From Acaryochloris marina MBIC11017 (lineage in GTDB: Bacteria > Cyanobacteriota > Cyanobacteriia > Thermosynechococcales > Thermosynechococcaceae): a DNA stretch of 32,000 nt. The notes beneath the pieces are model-generated. The model was not told the origin of the DNA. It saw nothing but the letters and a program-made list of their open reading frames with translations, and searched no databases. Below, one piece after another: positions 2,871-24,110 of this stretch. The stretch is from contig NC_009925.1 in the NCBI RefSeq assembly GCF_000018105.1, positions 2,880,001-2,912,000 of the forward strand, read 5' to 3'. How positions within the stretch are numbered: position 1 is the first letter of the stretch; every line of letters begins with the position of its first letter. The position numbers and the translations under genes are program-made.

Positions 2871-5303
2871 TTATCCTTCTCCCAAAGAACGTAAAACACT
2901 AAGTACGTTGTTGTAGTCATCGGTGCGACCCTGCTTGGCATACAGATCAGCCGCTTTCTTTAGATCAGTAATGGCGTCTTGTCGCTTATTTTGCACGGAA
3001 TAGAGTAAGCCCCGTTTATAGTAATCTTCAGCCGCATCTGGCTTAATCCGCAGGGCATCATTGAGATCTTGTAAGGCTCCATCCAAATCTTTGAGCTGGA
3101 TTCTAGCGCTAGCACGGTTAGAATAGGCCGCTTGACTGCGCACCTCACTCTTGCGGGTGTCATTAATTTGAATCGTGCGTCCATAATCTTGGATCGCTTT
3201 TTCATACTGCTTCAACCGCAAATAAATATTGCCGCGCACCGTATACAAAGCAGCACTGCTAGGATTAATCTCCAGGCCTTTGTTGCAGTCTGCCAGGGCA
3301 CGCTGCAGTTCATTCAGGGAAAATAAGGCCCCACAGCGATTGTTGAGGACAAAGGGATCCTTAGGGTTAATGGCGATGGCGCGATCATAATCTTGAAGCG
3401 CCCCTTCAAAGTCCGCCTGCTGGCCTTGATAAGCCCGCAGTTCCCCCCTAAGCAGATAGGCACTGGTCGAGTTGGGATTAATCTGGAGCGCCTGGTCAAA
3501 GGATTGACGGGCCTGCTCGATTTCCCCCTGCTCATAGAAAACTCCACCCAGATTGGTATGGGCACGGGTAAGTTGGGGGTTAATGGTCAACGCCTGGTTA
3601 TAATCTGCGATCGCATCTTGTTTTCGGTCCAGTCTAGATTTGGCATAGCCCCGACTCGCATAGTCTTTCGCCGTGCGTACGGGCAGTTTCAGGGCCTTTT
3701 CCCAGTCTTGTTCTGCCCCCTCTGGGTCTCCTAGAACCGAGCGATAGCTACCCCGATTGACGTGGGCTGATAAATGATTCGACTCGGCTTGGATGGCCTT
3801 ATCTAGCTCTTTGACCGCCGCTTCTAGCTTCCCCTGGACAAAAAATACAGAGCCTAAATTGAGATAGCCTTGGGCCTGGTTGGGCTGCAACCGGATTGCC
3901 TTGCGATAATCAGCAATGGCCGCTTCATACTTACCCAGCTCCACCTGGGCATCTCCCCGATGGTTATAGGTTTCCGCATCTTTAGGGTCAAGGGTTAGGG
4001 CTTCGTTATAATCTGAGATCGCAGCTTGATATCCTCCAGTAGCAAAGCGAATTTCACCTCGCTCGCGAAAGGCTGCTGCCGTTTTCGGCTGCTGTTTTAA
4101 CAACGTATCAAACTGGGCAATGGCTTCCGGATATTTGCCAATTTCGGCATAGGTTTCACCCAACTTCAGAGCCGCTTCCGTATAGTCCGCTTTGAGTTCT
4201 AACGCCTGTTCAAAATTTTCAGTGGCCGACTGCCAGTTGCCGGATTGGGCTGCCTGCTGTCCCCAAAAATAATGCCATTGGGGACGAAAGAGAAAAAAGA
4301 GACTTGCAGATGCGATCGCAGCTCCCCCTACTCCTAAACCAATCCACTGCCACTTAGGCTTCTGGATCTTAGATGTAGGCTGGCGGGCAGTTGATAGTCC
4401 CGATTCCGTGGAAGCAGGCTCAGAACTGGCAGGTGCAACCTCATCTTCCGCCGAGGGATGGGACAATACCGTACTGGCTTGGGCCACAGACTGTAATGCT
4501 GTTCGCATGGCTGCGACTGTGGCAAATCGGTGCTTCGGGTGGGGCTTAACCAGTTGATCGAGCAAGCTTCGAAAGGGAGTGCTTAGATGTTCACAATCTT
4601 GTTTCCACTGCAAACGCCCCGTGGCACTATCGGTCTCAAACTGATCGGGAAACTTGCCCGTCAGTAAATAAATCGCCGTTAACCCCAAACTATATAGATC
4701 GCTGGCAAACGTTGGTCGCCCCGCTGCCTGCTCTCGGGGCATAAAACCGAGGGTACCAATCACAATCGAGCGGCTGGGCTGGCCCTGGGCATTTATTTGG
4801 GTCGCCATTACTTCCTTAACGGCCCCAAAGTCAATCAGACACGGCTGCTGGTCAGCATTACGAACAATAATATTGTCGGGTTTAATATCGCGATGAATAA
4901 TGTTATGACCATGAATGTAATTGAGCACATTCAAAATCTGATAAAGCAGTTTGATCACCTCTGCTTCATTCAGGGAACCTTGGGCCGTGACAATTTCGGT
5001 GAGGGTCTGGCCTTCAATCCATTCCTGCACCAAATTGAACTGCCCCTCTTCTTCAAAGTAAGCAAATAGATCAGGAATTTGCGGATGCCCTTGACCAATC
5101 CGTTCTAAGATGGCCGCTTCCCGCTGAAATCGTTCCAGCACAATTTTCTGCACCCGATCATTGTTGAGTACAGGTTTGAGCTGTTTAATCACACAAAATC
5201 GCCGGGATGGCATCTGCACATCTTCAGCTAAGAAGGTTTTACCGAATCCACCCTCATTTAAAGCTTTGAGAATCTGATATCGGCCATTAACAAGTCCTAC
5301 CAT
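2871..5303 (-). CDS. Ser/Thr protein kinase with a central TM helix and a C-terminal TPR-repeat array
   Basis: Hanks kinase motifs are present: [14 protein letters not shown] (Lys), [12 protein letters not shown] and [11 protein letters not shown] hydrophobic segment [20 protein letters not shown] follows, then about a dozen TPR-like repeats (A..Y..AL.L.P....Y..RG pattern) run to the C-terminus. Confidence 0.9.
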
Positions 5304-5356: not shown

Positions 5357-6241
5357 TCATGCCGCTAGGGTAACCTGCATTCGCTTTTGTTGCCGTAAAT
5401 AGCCATGCAAAATTTCAGCATCCATACCGTGAAGCATCAGCCGAAAGCCAGCATGGAGGGTGATCAGCGGGATACAGGGATGGCGGTTGTTCACTAACCC
5501 CAAGGCCAGGGGATCTTGTAACAATTTGCTGATGTAAATGGCAATGGTTTCATCTAACTGCAATGAATTGGTGGCCCGCCAGAAATCATGATCCGACAGA
5601 AATAAGGCATAAACTGGCGTATACACCTCAATAGCAGACTGTAAATCCACAAAATTCAGCCATCCCTGGCGTCCAGGATTGATCTCAAACTCTCCATCCG
5701 TAATTGCGTCAAAGTTGAGCCGTTGTGGTGCTTCCAGGATTCGATTCTCCGCCTTCAGCTTTTGATTCAGCTCAATAATAAAGTTGTAAATATTCAAGTC
5801 ATGAATCAGGAAGGTATTATCCTTTAAATCTTCTAGGCAGGTGGGACGTAAGGATTGGGTAGACGTGATTTCAACCCCAGCATTATCCGCAATAAATTTC
5901 AGAATCTCCGTCCCAATCACAAAGTGCCGCAAAATCAGATAGTTGCTATCGGGGGTCACAAAATACTTCAATCCCCAATAGATTAGCTGATGCAGCAGCC
6001 TCGACGAGCTTAACCATTCGGGAATCACAATCCGCAGCAGCTTCACCACCACAATCATCAACTTTGCAAAAGGGCGAACCAAGGGCAAAAAGATCCGGCG
6101 TGAGCGGCTATTATGCCCCCTCAGTAGCGCTCGTTTAGATTCATCATGGAGGGGCAGACTCGCATCTATATAAAGGGCCAACCAAGGATTGGGGTCTTTA
6201 ATATTAACGATTTGTTGATCAAACTCAGTCTGCCAACTCAT
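5357..6241 (-). CDS. Orphan hypothetical protein, 294 aa; third gene of the KAS III / HDO-like operon
   Basis: A long ORF with the ATG at 6239-6241 sharing one base with the stop of the upstream gene (TGATG). One hydrophobic stretch is present (FAKLMIVVVKLLRIVIP). I recognise no catalytic or cofactor motif. Confidence 0.7.
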   Translation of the reverse strand: MSWQTEFDQQIVNIKDPNPWLALYIDASLPLHDESKRALLRGHNSRSRRIFLPLVRPFAKLMIVVVKLLRIVIPEWLSSSRLLHQLIYWGLKYFVTPDSNYLILRHFVIGTEILKFIADNAGVEITSTQSLRPTCLEDLKDNTFLIHDLNIYNFIIELNQKLKAENRILEAPQRLNFDAITDGEFEINPGRQGWLNFVDLQSAIEVYTPVYALFLSDHDFWRATNSLQLDETIAIYISKLLQDPLALGLVNNRHPCIPLITLHAGFRLMLHGMDAEILHGYLRQQKRMQVTLAA

Positions 6242-6942
6242 CAATACTGTCCTAGTTCTTCTAGCTGTAGGAGGTATAGCCGAGCCGTAACTTTGGCAGT
6301 GCGGACAATCGACTCATCCATTCCTGTTATATCCAAAATTGAGCTAGACAGCAGGTCTTCCAGTTCCTGAAGATGATCTTCATCATGGACCGCATGGTAG
6401 CGATAGAACTCAAGCTGATCGGGATCCGTGATTAGAGGGTTCTCGTCTAAGGCATTGGCAAAAGTTTGGGCAAACCGTTTACCTAAGCCTTCGATAATAA
6501 ACATGGCTCCCAGTAGATCAAAGGGGTTAGGCTGCGAGGCTCGCTGATACATCCAGGCCGACAACGCTTCCGAGCCAATATTTTTACGGGCACTGATCAA
6601 CGCCTCTTTTTGTCCCCCAGAAGCCAGATAGCTTTTCTCCAACATTTGATAGTCGAGATGTTCCGTGGCCGCATGGCGGATAAAGATAGAGCGCTGATCT
6701 AAGTAAGGAGCTGTAATTGAAGAGGCTGCTCGACTAATCCAACCACTCCCTTCCACCACTTGCTGGTAATGATCGCTAATTAGGGTGAGATAGTCCGCCA
6801 ATCGCAGCTGCTGCTGCATCGCCCGAGCAACAATCGGCACCTTCAATAACCGACTCTCAAAATCGGCCCACACCATGGTGAGCTGGCGCAGCACCCGCTG
6901 GGCCTGGGTAACGTTGCTATGGAGTCGGGGTTGAGTTTGCAT
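6241..6942 (-). CDS. Heme-oxygenase-like fold protein, putative diiron oxidase (iron-containing redox enzyme / CADD-PqqC-UndA-like superfamily)
   Basis: A 233-aa protein with helical-looking composition. The C-terminal YRYHAVHDEDH gives H-x3-D-x2-H, the spacing of the last metal-ligand helix in CADD/UndA-type heme-oxygenase-like diiron oxidases. A mid-protein carboxylate lies in MFIIEGLG. The N-terminal E/H ligand pair is not clearly alignable by eye (RHAATEH). Confidence 0.65.
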   Translation of the reverse strand: MQTQPRLHSNVTQAQRVLRQLTMVWADFESRLLKVPIVARAMQQQLRLADYLTLISDHYQQVVEGSGWISRAASSITAPYLDQRSIFIRHAATEHLDYQMLEKSYLASGGQKEALISARKNIGSEALSAWMYQRASQPNPFDLLGAMFIIEGLGKRFAQTFANALDENPLITDPDQLEFYRYHAVHDEDHLQELEDLLSSSILDITGMDESIVRTAKVTARLYLLQLEELGQY

Positions 6943-6946
6943 GGAA

Positions 6947-8077
6947 TTACACCACAGTTAAATGCATAAAGGCGGCAATACAGCGCCCACTTTCGGGCAC
7001 AAAACAAAGGATCCGCTGTCCGGGCTGCAATGGATGTTTTTGGACCAGCTCCTCTAGCATGATAAAGATGGAGGCCGTCCCGGTATTACCATAGCGCTCT
7101 AGGTTATTGCACCATCTCTCTTCCACGATCATGGCTCCTGTGCGGCGCAGCAGCCGCTTCATTTCCTCGCCCAAAGAGTGGGAAGAGTAGTGAGGTAAAA
7201 AATAATCAATGGCGTTGGGATCGAGATCGTACTTTTCTAGCAGCTCCAGATAGTAGCCCACCCACACGGGGAACATGGCATAGAGAATCTCAAAGTCTTG
7301 CTTGAGGGCGATGGCACCGGCTTCATAGGCAGCCTGAGGAGACTCATATAATCCCCATCCCTGGTCATCAGCCCCAGTATTGCTTTTGGCCCCTGCATAC
7401 ATACAGGGCGGAAATCGATCGGCAAAGGACTTAAATTGAATCCAATCAACCCGCAAAGAGACGCCATCAGGTTTAGGGCCGGGCTCTAGCACCAAGGCTC
7501 CTGCCCCATCAGACAGGGTCCACCGCAAAAATTCAATTTGCGGATCCGGTCTAGCCGCTTCGTCATAAAAAGGCCGATAAACCGAAGGGCGAAACCAACG
7601 GCTGGCAAATTCGCTGCCACTGGCGACGGCGAGCTGAGACTCACCCACTTTGACGTTGAGCCAGGCATTTTTAACCGCCATCAGGCTGCTAGCACAAACA
7701 CTCTGAAACGAAAAAATGGCTAAGGGGGGAATGCCCAATTCACCATGGACTGCACTGGCAAAACCTGGCACCAGATAATCCCCTTGGGTCGTACTAGTGG
7801 CCAGTAAATCTACCTGTTCAGGCTGACAGCGAGCTTGCTTGAGGGCATCGTGGATGGCATGGGCTGCCATCGATGCGTTGGTATATCGATAGCCCCCTTC
7901 CGTATCGAGAGCATAGAAGCGATGCTTAATCCCATTTTTTCGTAGGATGGCAGATCCTAGGGTAGAGCTACGTTTGCTAATACTGCCGATATACGCCGCC
8001 ATATCCTGATTAGCAACGGGCTCTCCGGGCAAAAATTTGCCGACTCCAGTGATAAAAACCGCTTGACCGGGAGACAT
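6947..8077 (-). CDS. KAS III (FabH)-like beta-ketoacyl synthase / thiolase-fold condensing enzyme
   Basis: 376 aa from the ATG at 8077; the track's TTG at 8083 adds 2 aa. The order of a Cys-His-Asn triad is present: FQSVCASSLMA, FLPHYSSHSL, LERYGNTGTASIF. The length and N-terminal ITGVGKFLPG are typical of FabH-like enzymes. Confidence 0.85.
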   Translation of the reverse strand: MSPGQAVFITGVGKFLPGEPVANQDMAAYIGSISKRSSTLGSAILRKNGIKHRFYALDTEGGYRYTNASMAAHAIHDALKQARCQPEQVDLLATSTTQGDYLVPGFASAVHGELGIPPLAIFSFQSVCASSLMAVKNAWLNVKVGESQLAVASGSEFASRWFRPSVYRPFYDEAARPDPQIEFLRWTLSDGAGALVLEPGPKPDGVSLRVDWIQFKSFADRFPPCMYAGAKSNTGADDQGWGLYESPQAAYEAGAIALKQDFEILYAMFPVWVGYYLELLEKYDLDPNAIDYFLPHYSSHSLGEEMKRLLRRTGAMIVEERWCNNLERYGNTGTASIFIMLEELVQKHPLQPGQRILCFVPESGRCIAAFMHLTVV

Positions 8078-8632
8078 AGGCAAAGCTAACTCAGAGGGCA
8101 GTAATGGTTGGCTGGTTTATACTCGATGCTGTCGCAGCATCTACTGCTGAATCATAGCTCGTCTCGGGTTGACTCGCGCTAAAGAGTGGACTACATTAAT
8201 TTCCCGTCTTATATTGGTTTTCAGAAAGGAAATCACAACCCTCTATCCATGCCTTTACCAGACTTGAGGCAAGTCATTGGTTCGGCTCGCTACATTTGTA
8301 GCTTCACAGGCTGTTGTATTGTCAAAAGATGGTGAAACACGGGCATTCGATTAATTCCTCTGATAAACGGCCAAATCCATATTTGTTAATAGATTTACCG
8401 ATTGAGACCTATAAGTTTGGCATCGAAATGGGCACACTACAGTCATCGGTGTTGATGGAGATTTGATATCCAGGCTATCGCCAACAATGGTTTGTCCTAG
8501 TCGTGTCCTAGCACACAAGTAGCAAGTTTAGCTTGCGGTCTCAGCGGTCGGGGGAGCCTGCATTAAGTTGCAGTAGGCCATCGCTTTTTTCAGCAATAGA
8601 GTCACGTCCTCTTTCGAGATGTAAGTTTTACA

Positions 8633-10225: not shown

Positions 10226-10618
10226 TCACCCAGTATTTGAGGCTGCGGATTGCTTTAGGTAATTCAAAAACCAGTTCACGGCAGTGGCCCGGCGAGTTCG
10301 GCGCGGATTAAGCTCATCGACCGTGTACCCCCCAAAGCCTAATTCTGATTTCAGCAGCTGTTTGTTTTCTTTGGGAATGGAGCGGGTGAGTTTGATGGTG
10401 GCAGGACGACTGCCAATGAAGTCTGGCGGATCTGGGTAGGTTTCTGTCCAGACTTCATCCACTTGTGAAACATCCCATGCCTGCGAGGCTGGATCATAGC
10501 GATAGCCCAAGTGATACCAGAGCATCTGATTAACGATTTCATCAGGAATTTTGTCGTCCAAGATGGCCCAAAAGGTTTCTGCTATTAATTCCGGTAAATC
10601 AGATTCTGAAACAGACAT
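10226..10618 (-). CDS. Conserved hypothetical protein of the cyanobacteria/plastid lineage (DUF1823-like; family name tentative)
   Basis: A 130-aa soluble protein whose ATG lies 3 nt after the upstream gene's stop. The pattern WYHLGYRYD...W...YPDPPDFIGSRPATIKLTRSIP matches my recollection of DUF1823. This was not verified by a search. Confidence 0.75.
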   Translation of the reverse strand: MSVSESDLPELIAETFWAILDDKIPDEIVNQMLWYHLGYRYDPASQAWDVSQVDEVWTETYPDPPDFIGSRPATIKLTRSIPKENKQLLKSELGFGGYTVDELNPRRTRRATAVNWFLNYLKQSAASNTG

Positions 10619-10621
10619 AGA

Positions 10622-11209
10622 TCATCCCGTTGGGCGCTGTTGAGTAGTGCGCTGAAGCAGCCATAATGACGCAACCACACCGGCAAACTGCCCAGCGATC
10701 GTATTGATACAGGCTTGAATCACAAATAGATCAATCGGTTCTACCAGTTGATTGGGGTTTAGGCTAAATACCGCCACCCCTTGAGAAATGGCCTTACCGA
10801 TAATCGCCCCCACAAACCATTCTCCCCCAATTACGGTTACTAAAATACCGACTAGATCCGTAAGCAAGACCATTTTCAGTAATCTTAGGGTGGCGGCTTT
10901 AGAAGGGGCATTGGCACTAGACGGCGCTAAAAAACGACGTCCCCAGCGGGTATAGCGAAAACTCCAGAAAACGCTCACTCCCAAGAGCAAAATGCCTGCC
11001 ACCGTAAATAACAGGCCTAAACCGCTGATCGTATTGCCCGCCTGATTCGGATTACTGGCGCGGCTGAAGAAGGCGAATAGAACCGTTACGCCCGAGATGA
11101 TGCCTAACACCGCCTTGATCCAGAAACTGATCCAGCCCACAATGCGGAATGCACCACCCAAATTTTTCAAATTGGGCGACCGGGATAGAGCGTCAGACGG
11201 TCGGGTCAT
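10622..11209 (-). CDS. Four-TM membrane protein, DUF3611 family (TIC21/PIC1-like)
   Basis: Four hydrophobic helices are present (WISFWIKAVLGIISGVTVLFAFF; LGLLFTVAGILLLGVSVFWSF; LLTDLVGILVTVIGGEWFVGAII; IQACINTIAGQFAGVVASLWLL). At 195 aa it matches the size and topology recalled for DUF3611. It starts 6 nt after the bciB-like stop. Confidence 0.75.
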   Translation of the reverse strand: MTRPSDALSRSPNLKNLGGAFRIVGWISFWIKAVLGIISGVTVLFAFFSRASNPNQAGNTISGLGLLFTVAGILLLGVSVFWSFRYTRWGRRFLAPSSANAPSKAATLRLLKMVLLTDLVGILVTVIGGEWFVGAIIGKAISQGVAVFSLNPNQLVEPIDLFVIQACINTIAGQFAGVVASLWLLQRTTQQRPTG

Positions 11210-11215
11210 GCAAAT

Positions 11216-12409
11216 TTAGTCCGGTAAGTCATATTGACTGACAATGCGCTTGGCGTACTCAGGTACATGGGCATCTACCTTATCAGGATAGTTGCGCTTC
11301 ACATACAGGTAGTTCCGGGTAAAGTGGGAATCAATGGAGAACCGCGCATATTCTAAACCTCGGGGACCAATCTTGTCGATCACCACGCCCATCAGCTTCG
11401 CCGCCCACATGGGCAAGGTCACCCCTTTATCATAAGCAGGGATACTATTTTGCACTGCGGCATGGCGATCGCCTTCGGAAATCACGGGCTGGGTTTCCAG
11501 CTGATCCATCACCAGATCCAGCATTTCTTGCCCCGTTTCATTACGCACCACAAGCCACTGCCAGCCATAGGGCGACCCCATATAGCCCACCACAAGATCC
11601 GCCAGGGAATTGGTGTAGTCGAAGCAGCTCATGCAGGACGGCGCAAAAATATCCTTGAGCTTATTGGTCTTCAGGCCAAAGAACGGCACCGTTTCAATCG
11701 AGCCATCTTCATGCTTAAAGTGGATGCGGAAATCCTGCATAAATTCGTAGTGGACAACCGTATCTGGAGATCGGCTCGTGGTTTCTAAAAAAGTCTGTAA
11801 CCCGGCTCGATTCACATTGTCTACACAAGGGGTTCCCAGAACATACAGCTTTTCTAGTCCTAAGCTGTCCTGAACAGACCGCAAAGCCTGGGTTTGACAG
11901 CCCACGCCAATCACACACAAACGCTTCAGGCCCGACTGTTCAATCTGCTCCAATACCGAGAGATTGGGGGAGAGGGTGGGCTTATTCACCCGAGCTGCCA
12001 ACACCTCTTCTGGAGTACGAGCAATAATCGGCTTGGGTTGGAACCGATCTTCATCGGTATTTTGGATACAGACAACGCCGTCCACTTTGCCCTGCTTCAG
12101 CATTTCCATACCGATGGTGCTGACAATGCCTGTCCATTGCGCTCCCGGAATGGGATCGACCTTGCGGGCCGTCATCATTTGGTTGCTGACCCCAAAGTAC
12201 CAATCATCTTCGTTATCCAAGTCACGGCTACGACCGTGGGCTTTTTCTTCTAATTCAGCTACCTGCTGATTTAAAAAGGCACAGGCTTCTTTTACATAGT
12301 GAATGTAGTAGGTATCGCACAGACCACATTCACTACAGAGTTCTTTAGCCGGTCGGCGACTCGTAGACTTGAGGGCTTTGGCTTTTTTATGGGGTTGTAC
12401 CGCAGTCAT
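11216..12409 (-). CDS. bciB: Ferredoxin-dependent divinyl chlorophyllide 8-vinyl reductase family protein (BciB/F-DVR; FrhB-like, homologue of plant HCAR)
   Basis: 397 aa from the ATG at 12409; the track's TTG at 12508 adds 33 aa. The N-terminal Cys cluster CSECGLCDTYYIHYVKEACAFL and the segments GAQWTGIVSTIGMEMLK and ARTPEEVLAARVNKPTLSPNL match the HCAR/BciB family as I recall it. Confidence 0.75.
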   Translation of the reverse strand: MTAVQPHKKAKALKSTSRRPAKELCSECGLCDTYYIHYVKEACAFLNQQVAELEEKAHGRSRDLDNEDDWYFGVSNQMMTARKVDPIPGAQWTGIVSTIGMEMLKQGKVDGVVCIQNTDEDRFQPKPIIARTPEEVLAARVNKPTLSPNLSVLEQIEQSGLKRLCVIGVGCQTQALRSVQDSLGLEKLYVLGTPCVDNVNRAGLQTFLETTSRSPDTVVHYEFMQDFRIHFKHEDGSIETVPFFGLKTNKLKDIFAPSCMSCFDYTNSLADLVVGYMGSPYGWQWLVVRNETGQEMLDLVMDQLETQPVISEGDRHAAVQNSIPAYDKGVTLPMWAAKLMGVVIDKIGPRGLEYARFSIDSHFTRNYLYVKRNYPDKVDAHVPEYAKRIVSQYDLPD

Positions 12410-12550
12410 AGTCAAATTAGGGTTCAGTCCTGCGAAGTAAGGGCAGGAGACCGAACTGAATGGTGATATCGCATTCCGATTGTAAACAGTTTCGGGACCG
12501 CGACCCAAGCCCCCTCCTTTTTTTCCTTCGCTGGATGCGTTTAGGAGCCG

Positions 12551-14074
12551 CTAATCATTATGGGCATGATCAAACGTGTACACATAAAACATGCGGCTAA
12601 ATCGCTGGAGTAAATAGCCCCCCGTCGCGAAAACCACGCTACAGAGCACTAACTCCCAAAACTCAGGCGGGGGAGCCATTAAGAGTACAGAAGCATCGGG
12701 ATGAGTGATGGCGTATAGGGCTTGCGATCGCGCATCCAGCATCACCCCCAATCCAAAACACACCACTGCGCTGATCCACATGACGACTTTCAGCTGCTGA
12801 ATTCGATTTAAGGCCCCGCGGCAGACTTGGCAATCTTTAGTGTGGGTGTTCCAAATATCAAAGAGCTGTTCCTTATCGCGCTGAGGGGGTGGCAGTTGGG
12901 GATCACATTGCCACGGAATCCCTCCGCCTGCTCGGGTTTTGATCCACTGCCGTAGAGCAATTACCATCTTGTCTTGGGGATTAGGGGTATAGACCGTTTC
13001 TAGCCAATCTCCCGGTTCTTGATGCCCAATGCGCTTTTCCTGATAGTGGAGAAACACTAAATCTTGATGGAGAAAGAGGGGGGCCAAGACATGGCCGAGC
13101 CATTTTGGCATGGGCCAAGCAAAAAAGCCCAAACCGGGAGGGGTTTTTCCATCCTTATCTTTAATTAACACCTGGCAACCAATATGGCGACACCAGCCTG
13201 GGCGAGTGGGGCTGGCATAGAGCGCCAAAATCATCTGCCCATCCCTGGCAAAGGTGGTTTCAATCCGCATATGACAAGGGGGCTGAAAATTATGGACGGC
13301 CTTTCTGAGAATCGTATTGGCAAGAGGGGTGATATCAAAGGCAAAGCCTTCTTGAGTCGACACCTCCCGTACCGGACTCATATCGTAATAATTGGCATCT
13401 CGATAGCGATTGCCCATAATGCCATGATGCGACACCGGTACATGGGCTGGATCCGCAATATTCTCCATAAAAAAATCCCAGCCATAGGGCAGATCGCGCA
13501 CATACCAGAACAGCTGAATGGCCCGATCGGGCAACTCTTCTAGCTCCGGGATAATCCGAGGAGAGCGCTCCTGGCTGAGGGTCTGGGAGTCTTCACTGGG
13601 ATCGGGCCACACCCAAATGAGCCCTTGCTGCACCTGAGTCGGATAGGAAATTGCACAGGAGCGCGGGTTGGCTCGATTCTGTTTAGCCGTTTCTAAATCA
13701 CGACTTTGAGGAATATCTAAGCACTGCCCCGAACCGTCAAATCGCCAGGCATGATAGGCACACATTAAGGTGCCATCGACTTCGATTCGTCCTTCCGATA
13801 GGGGTGCAAGGCGATGGGGACAGCGATCTTCAAAACAATGCCATTCTCCCTGCTGATCATGCCAAATCACCAGCTCTTTTCCCAACAATTGAATGGCATG
13901 CGGGCTTTTTGGAGCCAAGAACTCTACTACCGCCACTGGATACCATTGTTGTGTCCATTGAAATTGTTCAGGTGTGGCGAGGGACGTTTCAGCGTCTGAC
14001 ATGGGGGATGAGGTCTCGACCTGCTGAGAGGCGTCATGGGTTGGATCAAGGGACAAGCGGTTTTGAGTCGTCAC
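12551..14074 (-). CDS. Rieske [2Fe-2S] / mononuclear-iron oxygenase of the PAO/TIC55/PTC52/CAO family, membrane anchored
   Basis: The Rieske motif is CPHRLAPLSEGR...CAYHAWRF. The mononuclear Fe motif E-x3-D-x2-H-x4-H appears in ENIADPAHVPVSHH. A C-terminal CxxC (CQVC) and two C-terminal TM helices are present, as in PAO-family proteins. The start is either GTG at 14074 or ATG at 14002. Confidence 0.85.
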   Translation of the reverse strand: MTTQNRLSLDPTHDASQQVETSSPMSDAETSLATPEQFQWTQQWYPVAVVEFLAPKSPHAIQLLGKELVIWHDQQGEWHCFEDRCPHRLAPLSEGRIEVDGTLMCAYHAWRFDGSGQCLDIPQSRDLETAKQNRANPRSCAISYPTQVQQGLIWVWPDPSEDSQTLSQERSPRIIPELEELPDRAIQLFWYVRDLPYGWDFFMENIADPAHVPVSHHGIMGNRYRDANYYDMSPVREVSTQEGFAFDITPLANTILRKAVHNFQPPCHMRIETTFARDGQMILALYASPTRPGWCRHIGCQVLIKDKDGKTPPGLGFFAWPMPKWLGHVLAPLFLHQDLVFLHYQEKRIGHQEPGDWLETVYTPNPQDKMVIALRQWIKTRAGGGIPWQCDPQLPPPQRDKEQLFDIWNTHTKDCQVCRGALNRIQQLKVVMWISAVVCFGLGVMLDARSQALYAITHPDASVLLMAPPPEFWELVLCSVVFATGGYLLQRFSRMFYVYTFDHAHND

Positions 14075-24037: not shown

Positions 24038-24110
24038 GCGCCTTTAGTTCAGTTGGTAGAACGCAGGTCTCCAAAACCTGATGTCGGGGGTTCGAGTCCT
24101 CCAGGGCGCG
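24038..24110 (+). tRNA. trnW: tRNA-Trp (anticodon CCA)
   Basis: Hand-folded cloverleaf. Acceptor stem GCGCCTT/AGGGCGC, D arm GTTC-AGTTGGTA-GAAC, anticodon stem CAGGT/ACCTG with loop CTCCAAA. Variable loop ATGTC, T arm GGGGG-TTCGAGT-CCTCC, discriminator G. The 3' CCA is not encoded. Confidence 0.9.

Follow-up and report, generated by a model that had tools for sequence, protein, structure and literature searches.

A conserved gene trio of a StlD/DarB-type ketosynthase, a heme-oxygenase-like oxidase and a DUF6999 protein in Acaryochloris marina MBIC11017 and across at least eight phyla, with a possible role in making an oxidised lipid

What could be produced by three genes that encode a ketosynthase, an oxidase and a DUF6999 family protein, and that follow each other on one strand with almost no spacing? 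The question is raised by a locus on the chromosome of the cyanobacterium Acaryochloris marina MBIC11017, located in a stretch of 32,000 nucleotides (contig NC_009925.1, positions 2,880,001 to 2,912,000) which is called the window here and from whose first letter its positions are counted. On the minus strand the trio comprises a stand-alone ketosynthase (KS) of 376 amino acids (AM1_2844, 6947..8077), delimited by its open reading frame (ORF) and assigned to the StlD/DarB type by comparison with NCBIfam and PDB sequences; a heme-oxygenase-like dimetal oxidase/oxygenase (HDO) of 233 amino acids (AM1_2843, 6241..6942), assigned with Pfam, AlphaFold2 (AF2) and Foldseek; and a DUF6999 family protein of 294 amino acids (AM1_2842, 5357..6241), assigned with Pfam, whose start overlaps the HDO stop. 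The proteins are identical to ABW27844, ABW27843 and ABW27842 and carry the public names “beta-ketoacyl-ACP synthase III”, “iron-containing redox enzyme family protein” and “DUF6999 family protein”. An initial annotation had regarded the trio as a coupled operon and a candidate for an uncharacterised small-molecule pathway, and our analysis supports this interpretation. The trio is a widespread uncharacterised variant of the head-to-head ketosynthase pathways that brings in a new domain fusion and a protein of no recognisable fold; its product is probably an oxidised lipid-like small molecule.

The DUF6999 family has approximately 2,800 homologues in a 90%-clustered protein collection, and it is encoded in at least 590 of 185,579 species-representative genomes. 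For the conservation counts the 80 best-matching loci were retained; fusions were counted over 74 complete loci and residues over 71. The order KS-HDO-DUF6999 on one strand is found in every one of the 80 loci that has enough upstream DNA, the few exceptions being contig ends, and as the same order recurs in all of them the adjacency of the genes is far beyond chance. These loci belong to Cyanobacteriota, Gamma- and Alphaproteobacteria, Myxococcota, Acidobacteriota, Planctomycetota, Bacillota and Bacteroidota, and the synteny of the trio extends over at least eight phyla. The three proteins also co-diverge: their pairwise identities are correlated (Mantel test, r 0.65-0.85), and none of the 999 permutations reaches the observed value. 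The three genes are a conserved and co-inherited unit. Clustering of all flanking ORFs of the 80 loci gave no other shared family beyond a desaturase; two apparent ORF families of 11 loci each run across the trio genes in the opposite direction and were read as spurious antisense ORFs. A tblastn search of the window, and of 8 kb to each side in the 80 loci, found neither the aromatase DarA nor an acyl carrier protein (ACP).

A further hint towards the history of the trio arises from the neighbour-joining tree of the KS, which is incongruent with taxonomy. The Acaryochloris KS sits inside marine Gammaproteobacteria, and this nesting points to a horizontal acquisition of the Acaryochloris trio. 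The only cyanobacterium among the best 80 loci is an Acaryochloris metagenome-assembled genome (MAG), whose DNA is 80-86% identical to the window and collinear with it. A more divergent trio is located on a Pseudoalteromonas chromid. As a separate observation, the plasmid pNFSY08 of Nostoc flagelliforme CCNUN1 (L083, 6001-8620) contains unannotated matches to a full-length KS, a partial HDO (137 amino acids) and a partial DUF6999 protein (153 amino acids); judged from these truncations, the trio on this conjugative plasmid is probably a copy in decay.

That the HDO works directly with the KS is best supported by the frequent fusion of both. KS and HDO form a single ORF of approximately 620-640 amino acids in 45 of the 74 complete loci, and both domains were confirmed by Pfam in the two fused ORFs that were checked. 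The two proteins are physically coupled in most lineages. The initial annotation had argued for coupling from the overlap of stop and start codons; the coupling itself stands, and its best argument is the fusion rather than the overlap. All split forms, including those of Acaryochloris, Saccharospirillum, Microbulbifer, Sorangium and many Alphaproteobacteria, are found in one part of the tree. Because they group together, the 4-nt gap between KS and HDO in the window looks like the remnant of one single fission, or the complement of one single fusion.

If gene 1 is regarded as a FabH-type condensing enzyme, as initially proposed, the Cys-His-Asn order is indeed present, yet the class is a different one. 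Against the FabH models TIGR00747 and PRK09352 the KS scores 85 bits (cut-off 292.1) and 98.9 bits (cut-off 249), which rules out a housekeeping FabH/KAS III. The best PDB match is the Photorhabdus stilbene ketosynthase StlD (5gk0, E=3.9e-74, full length). The next match is an ordinary FabH at 1e-16, followed further down by PqsD (~8e-7), OleA (~1e-5 to 1e-6) and a weak match to a 3-oxopimeloyl-ACP synthase (9j6e, E=6e-4). The score on the StlD/DarB family model NF005293 is 367.4 bits (cut-off 450) and that on the DarB model NF053539 is 310.6 bits (cut-off 550), both below the curated cut-offs; for comparison, a KS linked to DarA and ACP on a Burkholderia pseudomallei plasmid reaches 599.8 bits on NF005293. 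Numbered from the ATG at 8077, the residues C128, E156, H296 and N331 align with C126, E154, H302 and the catalytic Asn of StlD, and the register of the alignment is confirmed by the H302A mutant entry 5gk2. Among the aligned homologues C128, H296 and N331 are kept in 79 of 79 and E156 in 78 of 79 sequences; the catalytic Cys, on which the first assignment depended, is thus present throughout. By these sequence comparisons the KS is a StlD/DarB-type head-to-head ketosynthase with an intact Cys-Glu-His-Asn set and with scores under the family cut-offs. The beta-ketoacyl product expected for gene 1 was too generic a prediction, as enzymes of the StlD/DarB family join two chains into a carboxy-cyclohexanedione. 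A Michael addition and a Claisen condensation, catalysed by DarB, StlD and BrtD, link a beta-ketoacyl thioester to an alpha,beta-unsaturated one and give a carboxy-dialkylcyclohexanedione, which the aromatase DarA/StlC decarboxylates and aromatises (PMC6836626).

Gene 2 had been described as resembling a heme-oxygenase-like diiron oxidase, and its fold and candidate ligands support this assignment. The HDO passes the gathering score of Pfam PF14518 (34.9 bits, cut-off 28.9). Its AF2 model, computed from an alignment of 51 sequences, has a mean pLDDT of 92. Foldseek places the model next to 3dde (TM 0.81), CADD (1rcw/8va9, TM 0.78-0.87) and UndA (4wwj/4wx0, TM 0.74-0.78), each with a probability of 1.00; TenA and HmuO are weaker fold matches only. 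According to the model, the HDO has the seven-helix heme-oxygenase-like fold, near CADD, 3dde and UndA. In the signature of the family, core helix 1 carries a Glu and a His, core helix 2 a Glu and core helix 3 the motif HxxxDxxH (PMC13133933). Seven residues (H90, E94, D97, E151, H183, D187, H190) are invariant in the 51 database homologues and the 71 genome loci. The motifs cited in the initial annotation are all present and belong to this set: H183-x3-D187-x2-H190 lies in YHAVHDEDH and E151 in IIEG. The first core helix has a Glu/His pair in addition. H90, E94, E151, H183, D187 and H190 are the candidate metal ligands, and in the HMMER alignment the protein 3dde has the same residue as the HDO at each of the six. 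The first core helix also carries H95, in 66 of the 71 loci. Position 64 lies on the auxiliary helix before it; A. marina has Glu there, and 68 of 71 sequences have Asp or Glu. This residue could be a protein-derived seventh ligand as in SznF and RohS. The Pfam score, the fold and five of the six ligand positions make the HDO a member of PF14518. CADD and UndA were not reached from the HDO by sequence or profile search, and the match to the CADD model of NCBIfam is negligible (16 bits, cut-off 200). For TenA/THI-4, PqqC and canonical heme oxygenase there is no Pfam or NCBIfam match at E<=0.1, and these assignments were rejected.

The third gene had been left as an orphan. In terms of structure this holds, whereas a family can be assigned: AM1_2842 matches Pfam PF22523 (DUF6999) with 392.4 bits (cut-off 27) over profile positions 3-275 of 275. 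It has no match in NCBIfam, PDB sequences or PADLOC, and in the absence of a PADLOC match the idea of the trio as an anti-phage defence system was dropped. The AF2 model from an alignment of 56 sequences is confident (pLDDT 90.8, pTM 0.90) and all-alpha, and Foldseek finds nothing significantly similar to it in PDB (best E=1.1, TM ~0.13) or BFVD (best E 0.38). A profile search with DUF6999 against 1.84 billion representative proteins returned DUF6999 members only and reached no known family. Of the three proteins DUF6999 shows the strongest conservation, at a mean pairwise identity of 56% across phyla. H84, R105, H106, H147, D148, D199, R222, Q228, D230, E231, N252 and H254 are invariant in the 71 loci, and E112, E205, H271 and E276 are nearly invariant. 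At least 12 polar residues are thus invariant, 4-5 of them His and 4-6 Asp/Glu, a pattern which would be enzyme-like and may form a metal site. The hydrophobic helix at residues ~46-72, which contains Arg/Lys and has a Kyte-Doolittle 19-residue maximum of 1.83, suggests a possible association with the membrane.

Three other origins of this protein were considered. Relatedness to DarA in disguise was rejected (hhalign probability 0.15%; the putative DarA used in this comparison is flavodoxin-like at its N-terminus, in contrast to the all-alpha model here). A distant heme-oxygenase-like protein is unsupported (hhalign against the HDO profile 3%), and so is a duplicated ferritin-like protein, as the N- and C-terminal halves are dissimilar and Dps/ferritin structures appear in Foldseek only at E>1.

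Variant architectures give an indication of the substrate. In 16 loci an additional PF00487 fatty-acid desaturase gene of approximately 260-290 amino acids, with a weak match to the DesA family, is inserted between HDO and DUF6999. The loci belong to Acidobacteriaceae, Bryobacter, Pyrinomonadaceae and Myxococcaceae, and the desaturase follows a fused KS-HDO gene. The gene lies at about 7090-7960 in most of the loci L016, L017, L019, L022, L025, L026, L028-L031, L039, L046, L054 and L064, at 5090-5914 in L040 and at 2-343 in L051, where the contig end cuts it. One divergent locus has a PF04116 FA_hydroxylase gene after DUF6999. These accessory genes, as far as their families can tell, point to a lipid substrate of the trio. 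Divergent DUF6999 contexts are given by L088 (121-2247), L089 (1783-3350) and L086 (8001-8927); one divergent DUF6999 gene stands alone between aldo-keto reductase and beta-lactamase-family genes.

Which known system comes closest? The trio works most like DarAB/StlCD, with a KS score below the curated cut-off, no adjacent DarA and no adjacent ACP. The pathways DarAB(C), StlCD and BrtCD, which lead to dialkylresorcinols, bacterial stilbene and bartolosides, use a KS of the same family with identical catalytic Cys, Glu, His and Asn; they are likewise small clusters that draw on intermediates of fatty-acid synthesis and let an oxidative partner follow the KS. The difference is that a DarA/StlC aromatase and an ACP are missing from every trio locus, and that the partners are the often fused HDO and DUF6999, neither of which is known from dialkylresorcinol pathways. 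With UndA, the HDO fatty-acid oxidative decarboxylase that forms 1-undecene, the trio HDO shares the heme-oxygenase-like fold, HxxxDxxH and the core Glu, and probably also a fatty-acid-derived carboxylate as substrate. UndA differs in identity (~15%), in the ligand order of the first helix and in the missing counterpart of Asp/Glu64, and it is a stand-alone enzyme that is neither linked nor fused to a ketosynthase. The closest structures, CADD (CT610) and the structural-genomics protein 3dde (Sden_3740), have TM values of 0.78-0.87; CADD makes p-aminobenzoate from its own residues in another genomic context, and 3dde is without known function. OleA and NocG are thiolase-fold enzymes which also join two fatty-acyl chains without malonyl extension, with a Glu base and Cys/His/Asn. 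They are far more distant in sequence and have other partner genes (OleBCD; a fatty acyl-AMP ligase and an aminotransferase), and a NocG-type KS was dropped as NocG falls into a PpyS-related clade and not with DarB. The listianol cluster was dropped as a relative too, since it uses canonical DarA and DarB.

From these comparisons we propose, with modest confidence, that the trio is a self-contained and horizontally mobile cassette which uses O2 to make an oxidised small lipid from two fatty-acyl chains. Acyl thioesters would be drawn from primary fatty-acid synthesis, and by homology the KS would condense two of them head to head; in analogy to DarB/StlD, a carboxy-dialkylcyclohexanedione would arise from a beta-ketoacyl and a 2-enoyl thioester. 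The HDO, coupled to the KS as described, may then act directly on the KS product. The most plausible reaction would be an UndA-like oxidative decarboxylation or desaturation that aromatises the ring in place of the missing DarA. UndA and BesC perform oxidative decarboxylation or olefin formation (PMC13133933). Such a substitution would be chemically economical, because carboxy-cyclohexanediones are the substrates of the aromatase and UndA removes CO2 and introduces a double bond; that the HDO takes over the role of DarA is nevertheless a tentative proposal. DUF6999 would represent a third catalytic component, possibly a metalloenzyme of new fold and perhaps peripherally associated with the membrane, acting on the same lipid, to which the membrane fatty-acid desaturase or hydroxylase could add a tailoring step in some lineages. 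By this analogy a lipid or signal resembling dialkylresorcinols or cyclohexanediones may be the product. The olefin, ketone or signal molecule named as a product in the initial annotation is speculation. In its boldest form the proposal reads as a new widespread pathway, in which a KS-fused HDO performs a new reaction, e.g. a DarA-independent decarboxylative aromatisation, and acts together with a new-fold DUF6999 metalloenzyme to provide a new class of lipids or signals in at least eight phyla; we regard this as possible, though doubtful.

Several observations have to be held against the proposed cassette. The chemistry is inferred. The KS remains under both the StlD/DarB and the DarB curated cut-off; in the tree the trio KSs are not cleanly apart from DarB/StlD, and the rooting is uncertain. 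A 2019 review of cyanobacterial alkylresorcinols lists “DarA-less” DarB homologues, including a clade of two Acaryochloris strains, whose products “remain to be discovered” and whose reactivity may differ, perhaps yielding no carboxy-cyclohexanediones (PMC6836626). The first core helix of the HDO has the order H90-x3-E94, unlike the E...H of UndA, CADD, SznF and RohS, and if Asp/Glu64 acts as a seventh ligand the case for an UndA-like enzyme triggered by a substrate carboxylate becomes weaker. Furthermore, on one short metagenomic contig the KS is directly followed by DUF6999, with the HDO missing between them. DUF6999, not the HDO, may therefore be the indispensable partner, and with regard to the order of steps it could be DUF6999 rather than the HDO that is the obligatory second enzyme.

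The possible lack of carboxy-cyclohexanediones in DarA-less homologues, together with the sub-threshold KS scores, leads to an explanation without any ring. In this case an OleA/NocG-like non-decarboxylative head-to-head condensation would stop at a 2-alkyl-3-keto acid, the HDO would turn it into a long-chain ketone, enone or olefin, and DUF6999 and the desaturase would modify it. NocG is an example of a stand-alone cyanobacterial KS able to release beta-keto acids and ketones, and UndA-type HDOs turn fatty acids into olefins (PMC13133933). The KS is, on the other side, far nearer to StlD over its full length than to OleA or PqsD, and it keeps the equivalent of StlD Glu154. The mechanism of UndA moreover needs a beta-hydrogen, which a 2-alkyl-3-keto acid does not offer. 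We consider this pure Claisen route unlikely.

Still less probable in our view is a task in primary metabolism, namely the synthesis or repair of a cofactor or of a core component of the membrane lipids. Among related enzymes, p-aminobenzoate is made by CADD-type HDOs and a biotin precursor by the FabH-like BioZ; CADD is among the nearest structures of the HDO, and the KS has the weak match to 3-oxopimeloyl-ACP synthase. The housekeeping surroundings, with no transporter or regulator beside the trio, and the strong conservation of all three proteins would fit as well. Such a role is difficult to reconcile with the patchy distribution of the family and a single cyanobacterium in the best 80 loci, with a phylogeny that conflicts with taxonomy, with copies on a chromid and, decayed, on the Nostoc plasmid, and with the negligible score on the CADD family model. 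The reverse direction of metabolism was considered too: KS and oxidase might break down alkylresorcinol-, cyclohexanedione- or lipid-type compounds as a catabolic or detoxifying unit. Reactions of the thiolase superfamily are reversible in principle, HDOs such as BesC and FlcD can cleave C-C bonds (PMC13133933), and export and resistance genes were not found beside the trio. All characterised StlD/DarB relatives are, however, biosynthetic (PMC6836626), and genes for CoA ligase, dehydrogenase and hydratase, as present in catabolic operons, do not recur in the flanks; we regard a catabolic unit as very improbable.

The proposed biosynthetic cassette would provide a testable answer to the open alkylresorcinol question, namely what DarA-less DarB homologues produce and what replaces the aromatase. 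If it is true, the HDO superfamily would gain a new reaction and a new domain architecture, the fusion with a KS, and a role would be found for DUF6999, a family of 2,800 members whose confident model matches no solved structure. The cassette comprises three genes only and needs no carrier protein of its own, and cultivable organisms such as Microbulbifer, Myxococcus, Paenibacillus and Acaryochloris carry it, so that heterologous expression should be straightforward. The trio represents a good experimental target rather than a solved case. The initial annotation had listed four findings that would speak against it (a trio not syntenic elsewhere, gene 2 belonging to another family, gene 1 without its Cys, a match to a known cluster); all four were checked and none was observed. 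In agreement with its remark that the combination was not recognised as a described pathway, we found no matching characterised cluster and no paper on the KS-HDO-DUF6999 set in the searchable literature, which excludes most subscription journals, so that a prior description is possible.

At the level of the DNA, the three tightly packed minus-strand ORFs were found in the sequence as first described. The KS ends with TAA at 6949-6947, followed after 4 nt by the ATG of the HDO at 6942, and the HDO stop (TGA, 6243-6241) and the DUF6999 start (ATG, 6241-6239) share one A in TGATG. The ORFs of the original span, which extended to 8083, are correct except for the start of the KS. An in-frame TTG at 8083 lies upstream of the ATG at 8077; as independent public annotations of identical contigs predict proteins of 376, 233 and 294 amino acids, the ATG at 8077 is the likely start.

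The immediate neighbours of the trio are a Ser/Thr kinase-tetratricopeptide repeat (TPR) protein, AnmK and a TPR protein. As initially stated, no ACP, thioesterase, adenylation enzyme or transporter gene is found beside the trio in the window. The kinase gene (2871-5303, minus strand) encodes a Ser/Thr protein kinase of 810 amino acids with a long TPR array and starts 53 nt past the DUF6999 stop on the same strand, and the AnmK gene lies 2 nt behind it. This arrangement is kept in the Acaryochloris MAG and not in other phyla; the kinase-TPR gene is possibly co-transcribed with the trio, in an arrangement that is not conserved. Upstream of the KS, an intergenic region of 555 bp (8078..8632, no strand) reaches to the divergent TPR gene and, judged by position only, is presumed to be the promoter and 5' region of the trio. 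It contains no Rfam family, and a regulatory RNA upstream of the KS was dropped; it is not alignable at E<=1e-20 with the related Acaryochloris MAG. Promoter-like matches in the scanned region are no commoner than in shuffled sequence and the terminator scan is likewise at chance, so that these scans are uninformative for the operon boundaries and were abandoned.

Some observations concern loci outside the trio. Plasmids of Burkholderia pseudomallei (L082, 4039-6436) and Streptomyces (L084, 4718-7131) carry canonical-looking dar loci with a putative DarA, a DarB-type KS and an ACP. The two putative DarA proteins are 35% identical to each other (E=7e-49) and have no Pfam or NCBIfam match above cut-off. 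They are unrelated to DUF6999, as the hhalign value given above indicates, and absent from all trio loci. Elsewhere in the window, a protein with FrhB/FdhB N- and C-terminal domains, similar to the beta subunit of F420-hydrogenase, is encoded at 11216-12508 (minus strand), and an oxygenase with Rieske and PaO domains (12551-14074, minus strand) adjoins it on the same strand; together they form a redox pair of the chlorophyll-metabolism type in an organism with chlorophyll d. The DUF1823 and DUF3611 genes (10226-10618 and 10622-11209, both minus strand), 3 nt apart, lie immediately downstream of the FrhB-like gene and share its strand. The sole Rfam match of the window is a tRNA gene at 24038-24110 on the plus strand.

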